Source: Sedimentisphaerales bacterium | GTDB lineage: Bacteria; Planctomycetota; Phycisphaerae; Sedimentisphaerales; SM23-30 | Assembly: GCA_016928435.1 (NCBI GenBank) | Contig: JAFGKT010000064.1 | Span: forward strand, 2,753 to 66,752 | Length of the DNA: 64,000 nt | Direction: 5' to 3' | Shown: positions 21,221-28,998 of the stretch, in pieces | How positions within the stretch are numbered: position 1 is the first letter of the stretch | Layout of the letters: every line of letters begins with the position of its first letter | Program-made: the position numbers and the translations under genes | Notes under the pieces: model-generated | The model's input: only the letters and a program-made list of their open reading frames with translations | Database searches by the model: none | Told to the model about the DNA's origin: nothing

Positions 21221-22747
21221 TTAGAGTGAGACGGTTTCGGGGACCGGTTTTTGTGGGGTGGTTTTTTCTTTGTCGCCGGCGCGGCGTGCGAAGCGTTGCT
21301 GTTGGCGTTCTTTGACGAATTCGCAGAACTGCTGATTATCTTTGCTCCATTTTTTCATGATGGTTTTGACTGCGCGTAAACCGATAATGACTTCGTTAAT
21401 TTTGTCCCAAAGTGTAATAGGTCTTTTGAGCAGCAGTTTGAGGGTTAGAGGGTCCCATCCGCCTCCACGGTAGAATTTTTTGTGGGCTTGAAATACGACG
21501 TTTTGGAAGTCTTCGATTTCCATACGACCATGGGTGTAAGTGACGTGACAGGCATCATACCAGTCCCAGTCGTTGGGGAAGTCGTTGAGCAATAGATGTG
21601 GTTTCATCTCGTCGAACATTTCTGTGCCGGGGTAAGGTGTCAGGACGGTGATTTGCAGAGTTTGGATGTTGCAGTTTTTGGCGAACTTGACGATGTTCTC
21701 AGCGGTTTGTGCGTCTTGTTGCGGGCCCATGACAAACATCGCATGTATCCAGAAGTTGTATTCATGGAGGATTTTGGTGTCTTCTTGGAGACGGCTGACG
21801 AGGGTGTTTTCTCCTTGGTAGCCTTTGTGCCATTGTTTTGCGGTTTCATCATCGATGGTTTCGTAGCCGACATATAGCCCGGTGCATCCGGCATCTTGGA
21901 GAGCTTGGAGGAGTTCGTTATCTCGCTCATTGCGTTTGCTGTTGGTCCAATGGAGATCGACGCGGACTTGGATATTGAACATCAGGTTCATTGGCGTGAT
22001 ACGTTGGCATAGTTCTTTGGCCCAGCTTCGGCTTGCGGTGAAATTGTCATCGTAGAAGAACATATATCGGAAGCCACGTGAGGCATAGACTTTGAGGTCT
22101 TCGTGTACTTTTTCGACGGACTGGCGTCGGACTTTTCGGCCGAACATTTGTGTGACCGTGCAATAAGTGCAAGCGTGAGGGCAACCGCGAGATGCCATGA
22201 CGGGCAATTCATATAGTTCGCGTTTGCGGCAACTCTTAACGAGTTTGTCAAATTCGTGTACGAGAAAATGGTTTAGGGTTGGTATGGCGTCGAGGTCTTG
22301 AGGAGGTTCGGGTTGGACGATGCCGGGCTCGACTTGGCCGGCGGCGATATCTACAATAATGTTTTCGGCTTCACCTCGTACAACGATGTCGGCGTGTTCG
22401 ATCGCTTCATCAGGGCAGAAGGTGGCGTGTACACCGCCGATAACGACGGTTACGTTGGGCATGGCTTGTTTGATTTGATCGGCGAGTTCATAACCGCGTC
22501 GGGCGGTTGAGGTCATGATGCTGATGCCGATGACATCGGCGGTTTCGAGGTCTTGCCATATCTGAGGATCAGATTGGAGCGGGCCTGAGATGTTTTCGTT
22601 ATAGATTAGGACGTCGCAGTTTTGCTGTTCGAGAATGGTTGCCAAGGTAATCGGGCCGAGCAGAGGCCAACGAGTGATCCAAGCGTTGAGCGGACGTTCG
22701 GGACGACCTTGAGGTTCAACGAAGCGGACCTTTCTGTTACTGAGCAT
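21221..22747 (-). CDS. B12-binding domain-containing radical SAM protein
   Basis: N-terminal cobalamin-binding Rossmann region (IGISIMTSTARRGYELADQIK ... VVIGGVHATF). Radical SAM cluster motif CPHACTYC. Confidence 0.85.
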   Translation of the reverse strand: MLSNRKVRFVEPQGRPERPLNAWITRWPLLGPITLATILEQQNCDVLIYNENISGPLQSDPQIWQDLETADVIGISIMTSTARRGYELADQIKQAMPNVTVVIGGVHATFCPDEAIEHADIVVRGEAENIIVDIAAGQVEPGIVQPEPPQDLDAIPTLNHFLVHEFDKLVKSCRKRELYELPVMASRGCPHACTYCTVTQMFGRKVRRQSVEKVHEDLKVYASRGFRYMFFYDDNFTASRSWAKELCQRITPMNLMFNIQVRVDLHWTNSKRNERDNELLQALQDAGCTGLYVGYETIDDETAKQWHKGYQGENTLVSRLQEDTKILHEYNFWIHAMFVMGPQQDAQTAENIVKFAKNCNIQTLQITVLTPYPGTEMFDEMKPHLLLNDFPNDWDWYDACHVTYTHGRMEIEDFQNVVFQAHKKFYRGGGWDPLTLKLLLKRPITLWDKINEVIIGLRAVKTIMKKWSKDNQQFCEFVKERQQQRFARRAGDKEKTTPQKPVPETVSL

Positions 22748-23061
22748 GCGATGTTTCCTTTTGTCGGAGTTGATTCGAGGCGAAATTTATTCTTTTCTTA
22801 TCCTGTTGGGGTAAATAGAAAGATTTACCAATCTCTTGTGAAACGTTAATCATGGAAATAGCGTATTGTACTAGAAGACAGCGGGTTTAGAAACGCAAAA
22901 ACGACGTGGAATTTGGTGGTTGGCAAAGTTTGGTATAGGGGTTATATTGGGCGGCACATTGTGGTTAAGAGATTTGACGGGCGCCGGGTTTTTTTGTGTA
23001 AGTGATTTTATCGCAAGCGTTTACGTTGAGTAGTTCATAAGGTTATGTTCTAGGTCTATGG

Positions 23062-23090
23062 CCATCCCAACCTTAGGGGATGGTTTTTTT
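23062..23090 (+). terminator. Intrinsic terminator hairpin 22 nt upstream of the isochorismatase-operon start (candidate attenuator)
   Basis: Stem CCATCCC (23062-23068) / GGGATGG (23077-23083) followed by T7 (23084-23090). Confidence 0.6.
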
Positions 23091-23112
23091 GTGGACATAG
23101 AGCAAGGCCTTT

Positions 23113-23778
23113 ATGAAGCGTAAGTATTTTGATATTAATGATTTAACGAAGCAAGGGCCGGTTTTGCGCGGTGAAGCGGGGGCGACGGGGGGCAGATTTC
23201 GTTTTGATTTGGGTCGAGCAGGTCTATTGTTGTTGGACATGCAGAGGTATTTTTTGGATCGGGAGGGGCACGCATGGATTCCGAGCGGGGAAGTGATTTT
23301 GCCCGGGTTAGTGCGGTTGGCGGAAGTGTTTGGGCGGGCGGGTCGGCCGGTGGTTTTGACGCGGCATTTGAACAATGAGGCGGACGCGGGGATGATGGGA
23401 TGTTGGTGGCGCGGATTGATTGAGCGAGAGCGGCCGGACAGTGAAGTAGTGGGGCAGTTGGCGGATTACGCGGCTCGCGGGGAGGCGCGATTGCTGGAGA
23501 AGGAACAGTATGACGCGTTTTATGAGACGGATTTGGAGCAGTGGCTGCGGGCGCAGGGTGTGGAGCAGATTGTGATCGGGGGCGTGATGGCGAATTTGTG
23601 TTGTGAGACGACGGCGCGAAGCGGTTTTGTGCGGGGGTTCGAGGTGTTCTTTTTGGTAGATGGCACAGCGGCGTACAATCGGGAATTGCATTTAGCGACA
23701 TTGCGGAATATTGGTTTTGGTTTTGGGGAGTTGGTGACGGTGGCTGAGGTGGCGGCGATGATGGGGGATGATAGATGA
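23113..23778 (+). CDS. Isochorismatase-family (cysteine) hydrolase
   Basis: Catalytic-triad context LLLLDMQ, KEQYDAF, VMANLCCETTARS. Confidence 0.85.
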   Translation: MKRKYFDINDLTKQGPVLRGEAGATGGRFRFDLGRAGLLLLDMQRYFLDREGHAWIPSGEVILPGLVRLAEVFGRAGRPVVLTRHLNNEADAGMMGCWWRGLIERERPDSEVVGQLADYAARGEARLLEKEQYDAFYETDLEQWLRAQGVEQIVIGGVMANLCCETTARSGFVRGFEVFFLVDGTAAYNRELHLATLRNIGFGFGELVTVAEVAAMMGDDR

Positions 23779-24665
23779 TGTGTAAAGATGTGGTGATAGT
23801 AGGCGCGGGAGCCGCGGGCTTGGCGGCTGGCTTGCAGTTAAAGCGGTATGGTCGAGATGTGATGGTGTTGGAGGCGGCGCACATCGGAGGGTTGTTGCAC
23901 AACGCGAACTTGGTGGAGAATTATCTAGGGACAGGCAAGGCGGTTGGTGGGGTGGAACTGGCTGAGCGGATGGCGAGGCAAGCGGATGAGGTTGGGTTGG
24001 AGATACGCGGGGAAGAAGTGTTGGAGGTGAAGTTGGGCGATGATGGTTGGCAGGTGTGCAGCGGGGCGGGGGAATATAAAGCGTCGGCGGTGGTGGTAGC
24101 TTCGGGTACGGTGGCTAAGGGGTTGGAAGGGGTGGTGGTTGAAGATGAGGTTAGCGAATGGGTGCGGTATGAGGTGGTGGAATTAGGGGATGTGAGCGGC
24201 GGTCTGATAGCGATTGTGGGGGCGGGTGACGCGGCGTTTGATTATGCGTTGAACTTGGCGGGGCGGGACAATCGCGTGGTGATTATGAATCGAGGCAGTG
24301 AAGTGCGGGCGTTGAGGTTGTTAGTGGAGAGAGTAGGGGAGGATGAGCGAATTGAATATCGGGAAGGGGCAGCGGTAAAGGCGGTGCGAGTTGGGAAAGC
24401 GAAGCATGTATTGGTGGAGTGGGAGTGCGGTAGCGAAGTGGGCAGGGAAGAATTTGATTATGTTTTGGGTGCGATTGGTCGGGAAGCACGATTGGAATTT
24501 TTGGCAGAACGGTGGCATAGTGCGGGCATAGACGACGAAACGGCGGGTTTGTTTATGGCGGGGGATGTAGTGAATGGGCGTTATCGTCAGGCAGCGATAG
24601 CGGTGGGGGATGGTTTGCGAACAGCGATGAAGGTGCAAGAGTTTTTGCAGGAAAGACGAATATGA
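23775..24665 (+). CDS. NAD(P)/FAD-dependent oxidoreductase (thioredoxin-reductase-like fold, no CxxC)
   Basis: GxGxxG VVIVGAGAAGLAAG and a second dinucleotide motif AIVGAGDAAFDYA. The start overlaps the upstream stop by 4 nt. Confidence 0.8.
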   Translation: MMCKDVVIVGAGAAGLAAGLQLKRYGRDVMVLEAAHIGGLLHNANLVENYLGTGKAVGGVELAERMARQADEVGLEIRGEEVLEVKLGDDGWQVCSGAGEYKASAVVVASGTVAKGLEGVVVEDEVSEWVRYEVVELGDVSGGLIAIVGAGDAAFDYALNLAGRDNRVVIMNRGSEVRALRLLVERVGEDERIEYREGAAVKAVRVGKAKHVLVEWECGSEVGREEFDYVLGAIGREARLEFLAERWHSAGIDDETAGLFMAGDVVNGRYRQAAIAVGDGLRTAMKVQEFLQERRI

Positions 24666-25606
24666 AGATTATTTCTAAGGTAGTCAACGACGCGGTGGCG
24701 TCGGTTTATGTGGCTGAATTTAGCGAAGGTCGCCGGGTGGAGTTTGTAGAGTCGGTGCAGCCGCCTTTGTCTCGTGACAAGAAGTGGGTGGTGATTGTAT
24801 CGACGTTGTTTGGTTGCCCGGTGGGTTGTAAGATGTGCGACGCGGGGGGCGGTTACGCGGGTCAGTGCAGCGCGGATGAGATGCTGGCGCAGATTGATTA
24901 TTTGATTGGTACACGTTTTCCGAATGGGAAGGTGGAGACGGAGAAGTTTAAGGTGCAATTCGCGCGGATGGGTGAGCCGGCGTTTAATGGGGACGTGTTG
25001 GCGGTTTTGGAGCAGTTGCCTGGCCGATACGGGGTGGATGGTTTGATACCGTCGGTTTCGACGATTGGGCCTAGCGGGCGGGAGGCGTTTTTTGAAAAGC
25101 TGTTGGCGATCAAACAAGAGTTGTATGGGGGCGGGTATTTTCAGATGCAGTTTTCGCTGCACAGTACGGATGAAGCGAAGCGGGATTGGCTGATACCGGT
25201 ACGCAAATGGAGTTTTGAGCGGATCGCGGAATACGGTGAAGCGTTTTGGGAACCGGGCGATAGGAAGGTGACGTTGAATTTCGCGTTGGGTAAGGATGTG
25301 CCTTTGGAGGCGGGGGTGTTGAAGCGTTATTTTGATCCGCGGAAGTTTGTGGTTAAGATTACGCCTTTGAATCCGACGTATAACGCGGCTGCGAATGATT
25401 TGGTTTCGCATATTGATCCAGATGCAGATTGCAGGGATGACGCGGTGTTGCAGGATTTACGGCAAGCGGGGTACGATGTGATTTTGAGTATCGGTGAGGT
25501 GGAGGAGAATAAGATCGGCAGTAATTGCGGGCAGTATTTGGCGCGGTATATGGAAGCGGATCGGGCGGTTGAAGGAGGTTATAGTTATCCGGTGGAGCAG
25601 ATGTGA
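24662..25606 (+). CDS. Radical SAM protein, RlmN/Cfr-like core
   Basis: CX3CX2C = CPVGCKMC. MGEPAFN, SVSTIG, QFSLHS and TPLNPT blocks parallel RlmN. C-terminal NCGQY resembles the RlmN AACGQL. The start overlaps the upstream stop by 4 nt. Confidence 0.75.
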   Translation: MKIISKVVNDAVASVYVAEFSEGRRVEFVESVQPPLSRDKKWVVIVSTLFGCPVGCKMCDAGGGYAGQCSADEMLAQIDYLIGTRFPNGKVETEKFKVQFARMGEPAFNGDVLAVLEQLPGRYGVDGLIPSVSTIGPSGREAFFEKLLAIKQELYGGGYFQMQFSLHSTDEAKRDWLIPVRKWSFERIAEYGEAFWEPGDRKVTLNFALGKDVPLEAGVLKRYFDPRKFVVKITPLNPTYNAAANDLVSHIDPDADCRDDAVLQDLRQAGYDVILSIGEVEENKIGSNCGQYLARYMEADRAVEGGYSYPVEQM

Positions 25607-25614
25607 GAGTCGGC

Positions 25615-26187
25615 TTAATCGTTGTGTTTTTGGCGTAGTCGGTTGCTTAGGCGGAGCATGATTTGGACGCGTTCGGTTTCGTTGAGCCAATCTTGGGTGA
25701 CGGCGGCGATTTCTTCGGCTGGGGGCAGGAACAAACCGGTGGAGCAGGCGCTGCCTAGCTGCTGCTGGGCGAGGGCGCGGTAACGGTTGAGAGTGCGGTC
25801 GCCATACGCGGCGCAGAAGGCGAAGTCTTCAGCGAGGAAAAGGGCGACGGGTACTCGGGTGCCGGCGCAGATTGTTATTTGGTCGCGAAGTTGGGGTGCG
25901 GAATCGCGGTCGATGAATCGGAGGTTAATTTGGGGACAGGCGTTGGCGATTTGGGCGATGATGGGGCCTTGAGCTACGCAGTCGCCGCAACCTAGGGTGC
26001 TGGAGACGAGGATGTTCATTTGGCGTGTGAAGGTATCTAGGAGTTGTTTTTGCTGGTTGGTGAGTTGGACGGCGTTGTAGGATGTGGTCCAGTTTTGTTT
26101 TTGTTGGTCGCTGCCGGTAGCGATGTATTGTTCGTAGGGCAGAGCTTGTTGGAAGAACTGTTCTAGTTGGTCGGTGGTAAGAGGCAT
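25615..26187 (-). CDS. Thioredoxin-like family protein
   Basis: CGDC redox motif in LGCGDCVAQGP; about 190 aa; last gene of the minus-strand operon. Confidence 0.6.
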   Translation of the reverse strand: MPLTTDQLEQFFQQALPYEQYIATGSDQQKQNWTTSYNAVQLTNQQKQLLDTFTRQMNILVSSTLGCGDCVAQGPIIAQIANACPQINLRFIDRDSAPQLRDQITICAGTRVPVALFLAEDFAFCAAYGDRTLNRYRALAQQQLGSACSTGLFLPPAEEIAAVTQDWLNETERVQIMLRLSNRLRQKHND

Positions 26188-26212: not shown

Positions 26213-27358
26213 TTAAGATTGCGCGGGACGGGAGCGGACGAGTTTGAGCATGACGATGATGGTGATGAGGCAGATAACAGCTAGGATGGCAAAAGCGATG
26301 ATAGCGGAATTATGATTTTGTACTTGCCAACCGGTGGTGGAGTTTGGGTTGTAGATATCTAGATTGCCTGCGATGTCGCGAGAGAGATAATAAGTGCGTA
26401 TGTGTTGACGTACGATTAGATTTCCGGCGAGGCTGAGGGCGGTCAGAATGGTGGTGATGGCCAGGGAGAAGCGGCCGGCGGCTTTGAATGCGGCGACGAT
26501 GCCGGTCAGTAGAGCTAGGCCGATCAGAAACAGAGAAGCGTACCAAATTATGGATATGGAATTTGAGGTATGAAGGAGTTGGGATTGCAGGGGCTTCGGT
26601 AAGGTTTGGAGATACCAGATGGTAAAGGCGATTTGCAGAGGGAGGCCAAGGAAGAAGTATTGCAGGCCGATGCGCGTGGCGTGGCGGTTGATGTTAGTTT
26701 GAGTGAGTTGGGAATCAGGGGCGGGTTTGGATCGGCTTAGCCAAGCCCAGGCTAGTCCGCCCAAGGTGATAATGATGGCGAGATTATGCAGCAATCTTGG
26801 GCCTACGATGGGGTCGGGAACGTGCAGGGCGGAGGTGTGGCGATGAAACTCGATCCAGTGTTCCGGTTGGATGGTGAGTACGGAATTATTGGTCATGATG
26901 TAAAGGATGGCGATGAATGCCAGGGGCATGAGCAATGTGCAAATGAAACCGATTAGGCTTTGCTTGAGGCGAGCGAGATAGGTGCTGATGAATCCGATGA
27001 GCAGCAGGGCGAGTACGGCTAGCCAAAACGGGGCGATGAAGATAGAAGCGGTATAGAACCACGGTCCGTACAGGCATTGGGTAAAAAGCAATGGCGCGAC
27101 GCCGAAGTTGATGGCCAAGGAAATACACAACGGCAAGGAACGGAGCGCGCGGCTGTTTATTTGTCGGTCGATTTCGGAGCGATTACGCAGAAGCAAGCAG
27201 CGCAATAGGAGGATGCAAGATATTCCGACAACGGCGCTGACGAAGATTAGGTGAATCCAGAAGGTTATGGTGGAGAGAGTTACCAGCAGCCACGCAGGAG
27301 CGGGCAGAGCGAGATGTTGGTAGGCTGGGATGTGAGGGGCGGCGGCAGCAGCTATCAT
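26213..27358 (-). CDS. Polytopic membrane protein (possible partner subunit of the bd-like oxidoreductase)
   Basis: About 9-10 hydrophobic segments. Its start overlaps the upstream gene stop by 4 nt (27355-27358). No family motif recognised. Confidence 0.6.
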   Translation of the reverse strand: MIAAAAAPHIPAYQHLALPAPAWLLVTLSTITFWIHLIFVSAVVGISCILLLRCLLLRNRSEIDRQINSRALRSLPLCISLAINFGVAPLLFTQCLYGPWFYTASIFIAPFWLAVLALLLIGFISTYLARLKQSLIGFICTLLMPLAFIAILYIMTNNSVLTIQPEHWIEFHRHTSALHVPDPIVGPRLLHNLAIIITLGGLAWAWLSRSKPAPDSQLTQTNINRHATRIGLQYFFLGLPLQIAFTIWYLQTLPKPLQSQLLHTSNSISIIWYASLFLIGLALLTGIVAAFKAAGRFSLAITTILTALSLAGNLIVRQHIRTYYLSRDIAGNLDIYNPNSTTGWQVQNHNSAIIAFAILAVICLITIIVMLKLVRSRPAQS

Positions 27359-28998
27359 GGCAACGGCTCCCAGTTATCTTTTGCGGTGATGGGTAAGAGG
27401 TTGACACGGTTGGCTTGGTCGTCGAGTGTTTCATGGCAGCGTGAGCATTGGCCGTCGAGGGTGTGCATGAAGTAAGCGAGATCGTCACGGTCGTTGGGTG
27501 AGCCGAAGAATGGGGGCATAAAACCGCGGAAGCTTTCGAGGTGTTCGAGCGAACGGGCGAGCATGGTTGGGGTCCAGTTACGGACGAGTGGTTTGATGGC
27601 GTTGTAGCCATCGAAATCGTGGCAGCGGAGGCATTGGGCGTTGTAAATCCATTGGCCGCGGATTGCTTGGCCGGTGCGATGCTGACGAAGCAGGTTGGCG
27701 AATATCAAGGGGTCTTGAGTGTAGAACTCGGCCTCGCTAATGGTGAACTCAGCGAGATGGGCGCCTTGACGATCGAGAGGCAGTTGCGCGACGGTCAGGC
27801 CCAGCTCCAGGGCGATAGCTTGCGGATCGGTGACGATGGGGATGTTTACATCGATGGGGTTTATGGCCCAGGGATGGAATCGCAGTACGGTGTCGTTGGG
27901 GACGGGGCCGGTATAGGGCAGATCGCGGAGTTGGGCGATGGTGGCTTCACGACGTATGGGTTGCTGGGCGGTGAGAGTGTCGCGTATGGCAGGTGCTTGG
28001 GATTTGAGTATGCCGTTGCTGTAAACGTGATTCCAGATGAGGTAAGGTTTGCGCATTCCTTCGCGAACGAATTCGGATGCGCCGGTGGCGATAAATGCCA
28101 AGATTAGCAGCAGCAACGCGGTGCCAAGTGTTACGGAATGTTTGCGGACAATAATGAAGGTGTAGCTATAGAAAGCGATGAGGGTGAAACCTACCAGAGC
28201 GAAGGCGAAGAGCAGTCCCATTACGACGGAGCCGCCGGTAAGATAGGATAACGACAAAGGCGGGCAGCGGAAAAAGTACCATACGGCGGCGGGTATAGCC
28301 AGGACAAGCGGCAGAAGGGCTTTGCCAGCCAGTTGGGTTAGGCGATCACGTTCGGCGGGGGTGTATTTACGGGAAGCGTTGATAAGAACCAAGGCAAAAA
28401 GTGCGCCGAGAGTGAGAGCGCTGATGGTGCGAAGGATAAGCGAAGGCCAATAGGCTGGGTTGAACAATCCGGGCCAGAAAGAGAATGTGAAAGGGGTGGT
28501 GGATGAATCGAAGATGTGGCCAGGGGTTATCATGAAAGTCAATATGCCGTTGATTACCACCAGCGAGAGGAAAGCGGACACGGCGTACACCCAGCCGATG
28601 AAACAATGAGCTCGGGGCGAAATGGTTTTCCAAGTGTAGTAATAGAGATATCCGGAAATGATTTCGACGGTGAACAAGAGCCATTCGAGGGCCCAGGCCC
28701 AGAGGAACAGGTGGATGAGTATGGAGGTGGTTTCGGGACTGACGATAGAGATGGAAAACCAGATGCCTACGCCGGTGACTACACCGCCGATCAGAGGAAG
28801 CAATATGATTAGTTTGCTGTTATCGCGGAGAAATTTTTGGATAGCGGTGTCGTTGTGTCTGAGGGCGTGGGTTTCGGCGATGGCGTTGAACAGTCCGGCC
28901 CCCACAGCGAAGTGCGCTATGAACACATGGACGATGGCGATCGAGGCGATGACCATCGCGCCTCCGAAATAAGGCAGATACCAAATAGGATAATCCAT
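27355..28998 (-). CDS. Cytochrome bd-type (CydA-like) membrane subunit fused to a C-terminal dihaem cytochrome c domain
   Basis: The N-terminus (IAIVHVFIAHFAVGAGLF ... WAWALEWLLFTVE) resembles CydA helices. Two CxxCH motifs: CLRCH (27619-27633) and CSRCH (27433-27447). Confidence 0.7.
   Translation of the reverse strand: MDYPIWYLPYFGGAMVIASIAIVHVFIAHFAVGAGLFNAIAETHALRHNDTAIQKFLRDNSKLIILLPLIGGVVTGVGIWFSISIVSPETTSILIHLFLWAWALEWLLFTVEIISGYLYYYTWKTISPRAHCFIGWVYAVSAFLSLVVINGILTFMITPGHIFDSSTTPFTFSFWPGLFNPAYWPSLILRTISALTLGALFALVLINASRKYTPAERDRLTQLAGKALLPLVLAIPAAVWYFFRCPPLSLSYLTGGSVVMGLLFAFALVGFTLIAFYSYTFIIVRKHSVTLGTALLLLILAFIATGASEFVREGMRKPYLIWNHVYSNGILKSQAPAIRDTLTAQQPIRREATIAQLRDLPYTGPVPNDTVLRFHPWAINPIDVNIPIVTDPQAIALELGLTVAQLPLDRQGAHLAEFTISEAEFYTQDPLIFANLLRQHRTGQAIRGQWIYNAQCLRCHDFDGYNAIKPLVRNWTPTMLARSLEHLESFRGFMPPFFGSPNDRDDLAYFMHTLDGQCSRCHETLDDQANRVNLLPITAKDNWEPLP

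Follow-up and report, generated by a model that had tools for sequence, protein, structure and literature searches.

In a 64,000-nucleotide stretch of a Sedimentisphaerales bacterium genome (phylum Planctomycetota; GenBank assembly GCA_016928435.1, contig JAFGKT010000064.1, positions 2,753 to 66,752; hereafter the window), a compact three-gene operon of ~2.5 kb ends with a gene for a radical S-adenosylmethionine (SAM) enzyme that represents a distinct family related to the RNA methyltransferases RlmN and Cfr. Judged from alignments, this family keeps the cysteine that carries the methyl group in RlmN and lacks a counterpart of the cysteine that resolves the enzyme-substrate adduct. The gene is co-conserved with a flavoprotein gene and, in most loci, with a hydrolase gene. 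We read the trio, with a probability of about 0.4, as a self-contained, electron-consuming radical SAM system that would act on a substrate other than rRNA A2503. The three open reading frames (ORFs) are, in window coordinates:

23113-23778, + strand: ORF1, isochorismatase-fold cysteine hydrolase, 221 aa
23775-24665, + strand: ORF2, flavin- and nicotinamide-dependent (FAD/NAD(P)H) flavoprotein of thioredoxin reductase (TrxR) fold without CxxC, 296 aa
24662-25606, + strand: ORF3, radical SAM enzyme related to RlmN/Cfr, 314 aa

At both junctions, the DNA reads as an ATGA overlap of stop and start codons (gatagATGAtgtgt at 23775-23778 for ORF1/ORF2 and cgaatATGAagatt at 24662-24665 for ORF2/ORF3), and the three genes form a translationally coupled operon. 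An earlier sequence-only reading of the window had described the three ORFs, their 4-nt overlaps and the resulting coupling in the same way. Its family assignments (an isochorismatase-like hydrolase, a TrxR-fold flavoprotein without CxxC and an RlmN/Cfr-like radical SAM enzyme) hold in Pfam and NCBIfam as well. In the GenBank annotation, ORF3 is a 'hypothetical protein' and ORF2 an 'NAD(P)/FAD-dependent oxidoreductase'.

ORF3 has no Pfam match at an E-value of 0.01, and its NCBIfam matches to RlmN/Cfr are weak, with 41.1 bits for TIGR00048 against a cut-off of 290 and 30.9 bits for CfrAB against a cut-off of 530. Its best sequence match in the Protein Data Bank (PDB) is an RlmN, at E = 1e-4. 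An AlphaFold2 (AF2) model built from a 25-sequence alignment (predicted local distance difference test (pLDDT) score of 93) retrieved the RlmN structures 6fz6, 5hr6 and 3rfa as top Foldseek hits, with template modelling (TM) scores of 0.65-0.69 at 18-22% identity, followed by Cfr (0.58) and, as the next family, SuiB (0.48). All the motifs quoted in the sequence-only reading are present in ORF3, namely GCPVGCKMC, MGEPAFN, SVSTIG, QFSLHS, TPLNPT and NCGQY. In a profile alignment with E. coli RlmN (hhalign, probability 96%), Cys52, Cys56 and Cys59 of ORF3 coincide with Cys125, Cys129 and Cys132, Cys289 (SNCGQY) coincides with Cys355 (AACGQL), and Ile45 takes the place of Cys118. This pattern is shared by the whole family. 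Indeed, none of the 163 sequences departs from Cys52, Cys56 and Cys59, which form the canonical [4Fe-4S]/SAM site, or from Cys289, set within the motif IGSNCGQ[YF], and position 45 is occupied by Leu, Ile, Met, Thr or Val in all of them, never by Cys. No further Cys-rich column exists among the 163 sequences, so that the four conserved columns leave no equivalent of Cys118 elsewhere in the protein. We conclude that ORF3 represents a radical SAM family of its own, which is related to RlmN/Cfr and has a single invariant cysteine beyond those of the cluster.

The significance of this cysteine pattern follows from the mechanism of RlmN, in which Cys355 is the methyl carrier, methylated by a first SAM, and the enzyme-substrate adduct is resolved with Cys118 as the base (PMC12871812, PMC5130265). 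The 5'-deoxyadenosyl (5'-dA) radical takes a hydrogen from the methylated Cys355, the resulting methylene radical adds to C2 of the adenine, and Cys118 deprotonates and resolves the intermediate (PMC12871812, PMC5130265). In the C118A variant of RlmN, no 2-methyladenosine (m2A) is made and a covalent enzyme-RNA complex is trapped (PMC5130265; PDB 5hr6). The sequence-only reading had correctly noticed both the isoleucine at the Cys118 position and the retained Cys355-like NCGQY, a view borne out by the profile alignment. However, it had swapped the two roles by calling Cys118 the methyl-carrying residue, which the same two papers and the 5hr6 structure contradict. With the roles set right, the ORF3 family would be one that has kept the carrier and lost the resolver. 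Since C118A RlmN is inactive and its adduct remains trapped, a natural residue other than cysteine at this position implies that another way to finish the reaction is needed.

The same data make it very improbable that ORF3 is just a divergent or truncated housekeeping RlmN/Cfr, methylating A2503 or A37 beside unrelated neighbours. Such a view could draw on the Joint Genome Institute (JGI) pipelines, which label many members of the family '23S rRNA (adenine2503-C2)-methyltransferase', and on the fact that RlmN/Cfr provide the best NCBIfam, PDB and fold matches. It is at odds with a score of 41 bits where 290 are required, with an identity of 18-22%, with the replacement in 163/163 sequences of a cysteine that is required for methylation, and with a missing domain. 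As the alignments show, the N-terminal accessory domain of RlmN (roughly its first 80-100 residues) is absent from ORF3: they begin only around RlmN residues 84-110 (with TIGR00048, model position 84 pairs with ORF3 residue 16; with hhalign, RlmN 110 pairs with ORF3 residue 37), in line with the respective lengths of 384 and 314 aa. As Cys118, the N-terminal domain and the hidden Markov model (HMM) cut-off all fail, we infer that ORF3 is not an rRNA/tRNA adenine methylase. The sequence-only reading, which had already noted the missing N-terminal extension and set the protein apart from bona fide RlmN, is supported on both points.

Gene context further separates ORF3 from a lone methyltransferase. 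We compared 160 loci, consisting of 80 genome loci and 80 independent metagenome loci, and the counts of partner genes are limited to loci with enough flanking sequence (124 for the flavoprotein, 111 for the hydrolase). An upstream flavoprotein gene accompanies the radical SAM gene in 122/124 loci (98%) and directly adjoins it in 120, and the hydrolase gene is present in 88/111 (79%). The flavoprotein stop overlaps the radical SAM start by 4 nt in 66 loci and by 1 nt in 29, and the same gene order recurs in both independent 80-locus sets. The genes are also found fused, either as Pyr_redox_2 with the radical SAM domain (P0124, P0148) or as the radical SAM domain with Isochorismatase (P0153, P0154, P0168, P0178, P0189). 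This arrangement is far beyond chance. Partners that accompany the radical SAM gene in 98% and 79% of loci, and are sometimes fused to it, speak against a housekeeping RlmN/Cfr with unrelated neighbours. The obligate core of the module is the pair of flavoprotein and radical SAM enzyme, and the hydrolase is its frequent third member. On both points by which the sequence-only reading proposed to be judged, a substitute cysteine elsewhere in the protein and co-conservation of the trio in other genomes, the outcome favours that reading.

The family is large and broadly distributed, and the module is met again in hundreds of anaerobic bacteria and archaea. More than 5,500 protein clusters match ORF3 at E ≤ 0.001, and a profile search with the ORF3 family returned 2,490 representatives (50% identity) at E ≤ 0.001, 160 of them at E ≤ 1e-30. 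In a collection with one genome per species, at least 571 stretches encode an ORF3 relative. Among the matches listed, the radical SAM family occurs mainly in Chloroflexota (Anaerolineae, Dehalococcoidia), and also in Acetothermia, Fraserbacteria, Cloacimonadota, Zixibacteria, Latescibacterota, Eisenbacteria, WOR-3, Thermodesulfobacteriota and Pirellulales, as well as in Thermoplasmata and Heimdallarchaeota archaea. Identity across phyla, including archaea, is 56-65%. All-versus-all clustering of the neighbours in 82 loci gave only the three families of the trio, with no fourth one. Similarly, the 97 upstream neighbours comprised 130 Pfam families, none of which occurred in more than seven loci, and no riboswitch was found with Rfam in 14 homologous loci. 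A saccharopine-dehydrogenase-like gene, DUF3786, adenosine deaminase and FolP/FolK were considered as general partners and rejected as lineage-specific. The trio is thus a self-contained, horizontally widespread and context-free module, which is apparently mobile. No paper that describes the trio turned up in literature searches on combinations of these enzyme families; the sequence-only reading had likewise known of no described pathway with it. The folds are known; for the combination, for the universal loss of the resolver cysteine with the carrier kept, and for the breadth of distribution, we found no description.

The flavoprotein partner is a TrxR relative without the TrxR active site. 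ORF2 matches Pyr_redox_2/3 and reaches 130 bits with TIGR01292 (TrxR), against a cut-off of 343, and it aligns with E. coli TrxB across the whole of TrxB (hhalign, probability 99.7%). Its AF2 model (pLDDT 91.5) gives TM scores of 0.87 to L. lactis TrxR in the flavin-reducing (FR) conformation (5mh4) and of 0.85 to the E. coli complex of TrxR with thioredoxin. The GxGxxG and GxGxxA motifs are conserved in the family. The CATC of TrxB aligns to 'YE--V' in ORF2, with a conserved 'YEV' in place of the redox-active CxxC, and no conserved cysteine was found in alignments of 33 and 71 homologues. In the region of HRRxxxR, the TrxR motif for the 2'-phosphate of NADPH, the family consensus is 'ILNRG', in which HRR has become LNR with one arginine retained. 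A protein of this kind is predicted to be unable to reduce thioredoxin by the TrxR route. Ferredoxin-NADP+ reductase (FNR) chains match ORF2 weakly and over the N-terminal 185 residues only (E 2.5e-7 to 9e-5), compared with 1e-26 for TrxRs.

The hydrolase shows a clear isochorismatase fold signature (PF00857, 116.5 bits for a cut-off of 27, E 1.8e-33) together with the residues of a cysteine enzyme. Its triad Asp42-Lys130-Cys163 falls in columns that are at least 95% conserved in 51 homologues, and Cys163 sits in the family motif GVmthlCCEtTARsAF, with a conserved 'CCETTAR'. Cys163 aligns with the nucleophilic cysteine of Pyrococcus PncA, 3irv and 3hb7, at a position where EntB and 7l6j have a glycine (the EntB segment 'AHIGCMTTA' lies under 'ANLCCETTA' of the window, with Cys163 over Gly). 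Because Cys163 matches the hydrolase nucleophile where EntB has glycine, ORF1 is predicted to be of the cysteine amidohydrolase type and not a true isochorismatase. It misses every curated NCBIfam equivalog, the best being BiuH with 59 bits against a cut-off of 370.

Taken as a system, the preferred reading would work as follows. The radical SAM enzyme would methylate neither rRNA A2503 nor tRNA A37, and would instead rely on Cys289 to assist radical chemistry on another substrate, probably a small N-heterocycle that bears an amide. This chemistry might be a class-A-type methyl or methylene transfer via S-methyl-Cys289, or a hydrogen-atom relay through Cys289. The flavoprotein would be a dedicated NAD(P)H-driven redox partner that reduces the [4Fe-4S] cluster, a role suggested by the absence of a dithiol for thioredoxin and by its strict coupling or fusion to the radical SAM enzyme. 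Possibly, it also provides the reducing equivalents needed to resolve the enzyme-substrate adduct, which in RlmN is the task of Cys118. Indeed, a private reductase makes most sense if electrons are used stoichiometrically, as reductive resolution of a Cys289-CH2-substrate adduct would need. Finally, with Cys163 as its nucleophile, the hydrolase would open an amide (or thioester) bond of either the substrate or the product. A role in small-molecule metabolism, to which the sequence-only reading had pointed, is plausible in our view; the genomic context is uninformative in this respect, and its only hints about the substrate are folate/para-aminobenzoate (pABA)- or purine-related.

A more specific version of the electron-consuming system is a new mechanistic sub-class of radical SAM methylases, which is rather a long shot. 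Here, a methylene radical would pass from S-methyl-Cys289 to an sp2 carbon of the small N-heterocycle. In the absence of Cys118, the fused or coupled flavoprotein would resolve the covalent enzyme-substrate thioether reductively, and an amide of this molecule would be the target of the hydrolase. Together, the three proteins would carry out an unrecognised anaerobic step by which hundreds of uncultured lineages make or salvage a cofactor.

Several observations weigh against the preferred reading. The unusually high conservation of the radical SAM enzyme across phyla would also fit a tRNA, rRNA, DNA or protein target. The nearest sister clade lies in prophage and phage modules of DNA replication or modification, which hints at nucleic-acid substrates. 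A lone conserved cysteine near a radical SAM site does not have to carry a methyl group and can also be a hydrogen-atom donor, as in spore photoproduct lyase, one of the weaker fold matches of ORF3. Besides, the hydrolase may be accessory, given that about 20% of loci are without it nearby.

The first two of these observations lead to an alternative in which the target of the trio is a macromolecule (tRNA, rRNA, DNA or protein). Addition of a one-carbon unit by the radical SAM enzyme would yield an intermediate to be reduced by the flavoprotein, and the partners would replace the missing N-terminal domain in substrate recognition. We consider it unlikely, though deserving to be weighed. A mean column identity of 67% would suit it, RNA-modification genes are typically as context-free as the trio, the nearest solved structures are RNA methylases, and the sister clades sit in phage DNA replication/modification modules beside DNA methylases and thymidylate synthase. 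However, neither Pfam nor NCBIfam detects a nucleic-acid-binding domain in any protein of the trio, and it is not obvious what a cysteine amidohydrolase would contribute. The isoelectric point (pI), tried as a proxy for RNA binding, was dropped as not discriminating; the family median of 5.8, mildly acidic, gives RNA binding no support and is not diagnostic here.

The phage relatives themselves emerged from the wider clan of short RlmN-like proteins. At E-values of about 1e-33 to 1e-40, the ORF3-family profile retrieves radical SAM domains fused to QueT, with or without a methylthioadenosine/S-adenosylhomocysteine (MTA/SAH) nucleosidase, and phage genes. Two of the fusions (P0253 and P0266) combine in a single chain a QueT-type substrate-capture domain of energy-coupling factor (ECF) transporters, a short RlmN-like radical SAM domain and an MTA/SAH (5'-deoxyadenosine) nucleosidase, and a third (P0225) consists of a QueT-type and a radical SAM domain only. 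The QueT domain of these fusions is PF06177, above the Pfam cut-off. Such an arrangement could amount to a membrane-anchored machine that imports and radically processes its substrate, and it speaks for the view that small molecules taken up by the cell can be substrates of the short RlmN-like clan. The phage relatives of ORF3 occur in a QueC/QueF/formyltransferase cluster, in a NAMPT/NUDIX/NAD-kinase cluster and in replication modules. Inspection by eye of eight relatives' sequences showed that the C-terminal cysteine of CG[QNK] is kept and that none has a cysteine at the position aligned with Cys118.

A search with the QueT-fused domain revealed a large family of ~318 aa. The two members checked come from prophage-like regions of gut-type Firmicutes, where their neighbours include DNA methylases and a gene resembling phosphoadenosine phosphosulfate (PAPS) reductase. 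The phage and prophage loci L175-L179 and L086-L093 belong to this ~318-aa clade, which is without Cys118 and has the C-terminal cysteine. The members checked adjoin DNA methylases, a PAPS-reductase-like gene and thymidylate synthase, and in one case QueC/QueF. For this phage clade, a role in nucleic-acid modification is possible.

Within the 160 loci themselves, a few neighbourhoods are suggestive. A dihydropteroate synthase gene (FolP) precedes the hydrolase gene and is translationally coupled to it in two loci of Dehalococcoidia (L055:3676-6957 and L059:1452-4754), one of which also has FolK and a gene of the 6-pyruvoyl-tetrahydropterin synthase (PTPS)/QueD family nearby. FolK and FolP are found 3.6 kb downstream of the trio in L010, and in L099 the radical SAM gene stands alone, followed by a CooC-like ATPase and by TrpE/PabB-like and TrpG/PabA-like genes. 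A folate/pABA link is thus possible from 4/160 loci, which are too few to name a pathway. DUF3786 recurs near the trio in about a dozen loci, mostly of Anaerolineae type: upstream on the same strand in ten (L028, L049, L064-L066, L077, L135, L137, L154, L170), downstream in L147 and on the opposite strand in L001. An adenosine deaminase gene adjoins the trio in two loci.

Fusions and neighbours of this kind bear on a further alternative, a salvage or catabolic module in which the radical SAM enzyme is a lyase or oxidase. It would abstract a hydrogen from an imported or salvaged heterocycle (such as a 7-deazapurine, a pterin/folate fragment or a pyridine amide) with Cys289 as donor or relay, the flavoprotein would take or return an electron, and the hydrolase would cleave an imine or amide. 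This scheme, to which we give a minor share of our confidence, gains from the distant clan members fused to QueT and to a 5'-dA/MTA nucleosidase, from the relatives beside QueC/QueF/formyltransferase genes or beside NAMPT, NUDIX and NAD kinase in phages, from the FolP, FolK, PTPS, TrpE/PabB-like and TrpG/PabA-like neighbours of the four loci just described, and from a context-free, patchy distribution that is typical of salvage or accessory functions. It loses from the lack of any transporter conserved beside the ORF3 family, from folate links being confined to 4/160 loci, from the fact that QueL, the queuine lyase that has been characterised, is filed in InterPro under another entry (IPR006638), and from the invariant IGSNCGQ loop, which is a hallmark of class A methyl carriers. 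As to QueL, its kinship to ORF3 was followed as a lead that is unproven, and no link is claimed; no genes of queuosine (Q) salvage were found beside the ORF3 family (97 upstream neighbours) or beside the members checked of the prophage sister clade.

Apart from its coding part, the operon has a leader with two tentative elements:

22920..22948, + strand: promoter-like site TTGGCA-17-TATATT, 165 nt 5' of ORF1, with 10/12 matches in a consensus scan; tentative
23060..23095, + strand: terminator-like hairpin and T-run, with a 9-bp stem, 5 G-C pairs and a TTTTTGTGG tail; tentative

Promoter-like sites are no commoner in this region than in shuffled sequences, which makes the first element weak evidence. 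The hairpin and T-run end 18 nt 5' of the first ATG, and the leader (~22950-23115) folds better than shuffled sequences, with z = -3.15. The hairpin may act as an attenuator or belong to an unclassified riboswitch; no Rfam family was detected at the gathering threshold over the window, nor at E-values up to 5 over the leader.

A 365-bp gap separates ORF1 from a divergent gene for a B12-binding radical SAM protein (21221-22747, - strand), whose best match is HpnJ with 128 bits for a cut-off of 578. It is probably unrelated to the trio, as weakly similar genes are found near it in just 2/160 other loci (L070 and L099). On the other side, the stop codon of ORF3 lies 8 bp from that of a convergent Thioredoxin_9 gene (25615-26187), which was considered as a member of the module and rejected, with homologues in none of the other loci. 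The PADLOC defence-system models returned nothing meaningful. Further downstream, 26213-28998 (- strand) holds an unusual oxidase-like pair, made of a 547-aa protein with an N-terminal cytochrome bd subunit-I-like region and a C-terminal cytochrome c (CBB3-type) domain, and of a 381-aa multi-pass membrane protein without family match, their genes overlapping by 4 nt.

The window also displays an extreme asymmetry of composition between its strands. The GC skew of the + strand is 0.3-0.47 (2-kb windows) over the first 40 kb, where the skew at third codon positions is 0.5-0.78 whichever strand codes. Beyond this part, the skew declines little by little, being about 0 at 44-54 kb and -0.45 at 60-64 kb, with the same trend in non-coding DNA. 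The change of sign is smeared over ~25 kb, not a step, and the asymmetry visibly biases protein composition.

The use of two cysteines in class A radical SAM methylation by RlmN/Cfr is textbook knowledge, and the multidrug resistance conferred by Cfr depends on this chemistry. A large natural family in which the carrier is kept, the resolver is lost and a TrxR-fold flavoprotein without disulfide and a cysteine hydrolase are recruited instead points either to a different completion of the same chemistry or to a different reaction on the same scaffold. Either outcome would widen the known catalytic range of the clan and would correct thousands of automatic annotations as '23S rRNA A2503 methyltransferase'.

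Set against known systems, the ORF3 family shares with RlmN/Cfr (TIGR00048, NF000424; 3rfa, 5hr6, 6fz6, 9p0p) the CX3CX2C, MGEP, S-x-S-T, F-S-[LI]-H and [TI]PxNP motifs, the core fold and the cysteine of the C-terminal CGQ loop. It lacks both their N-terminal accessory domain and Cys118 and, unlike them, is paired or fused with a flavoprotein and usually associated with a hydrolase too. QueL of C. difficile (CD1682, Q186P0) offers a parallel as a radical SAM enzyme acting on a free nucleobase delivered by an ECF transporter, in view of the distant ORF3 relatives that are fused to QueT. Nevertheless, it is catalogued under another InterPro entry, and the nearest relatives of the QueT-fused domain lie in prophages and not beside queK/qrtT. 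ORF1 has the fold and the D-K-C triad of isochorismatase-like cysteine hydrolases (PncA 1im5, P. syringae 3irv, RutB 8bkd, N-carbamoylsarcosine amidase 1nba) and shares the 'CCETT' motif with 3irv. Its family differs from them by its own N-terminal extension, by an H-x-N...M..WW motif and by its linkage or fusion to a radical SAM enzyme. True isochorismatases (EntB, PhzD, VibB) hydrolyse a vinyl ether and have glycine at the nucleophile position, where ORF1 has Cys163.

TrxR-type FNRs carry a C-terminal extension that stacks on the flavin. Those matched in the PDB (3lzw, 3ab1, 5ygq) resemble ORF2 in being without a redox-active disulfide and are longer (332-360 residues versus 296 aa). With low-Mr thioredoxin reductases (5mh4, 1f6m, 4zn0), ORF2 has in common the two-domain FAD/NAD(P)H fold, with YEV and LNR instead of CATC and HRR. 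Finally, ThyX and TrmFO draw their carbon from methylene-tetrahydrofolate, not from a SAM radical, and have no sequence or fold kinship to the trio. They would offer no more than a hypothetical analogy in mechanism for the reductive step of the preferred reading: in both enzymes a one-carbon unit on a heteroaromatic carbon is turned into a methyl group by reduced flavin and not by an enzyme thiol or base.

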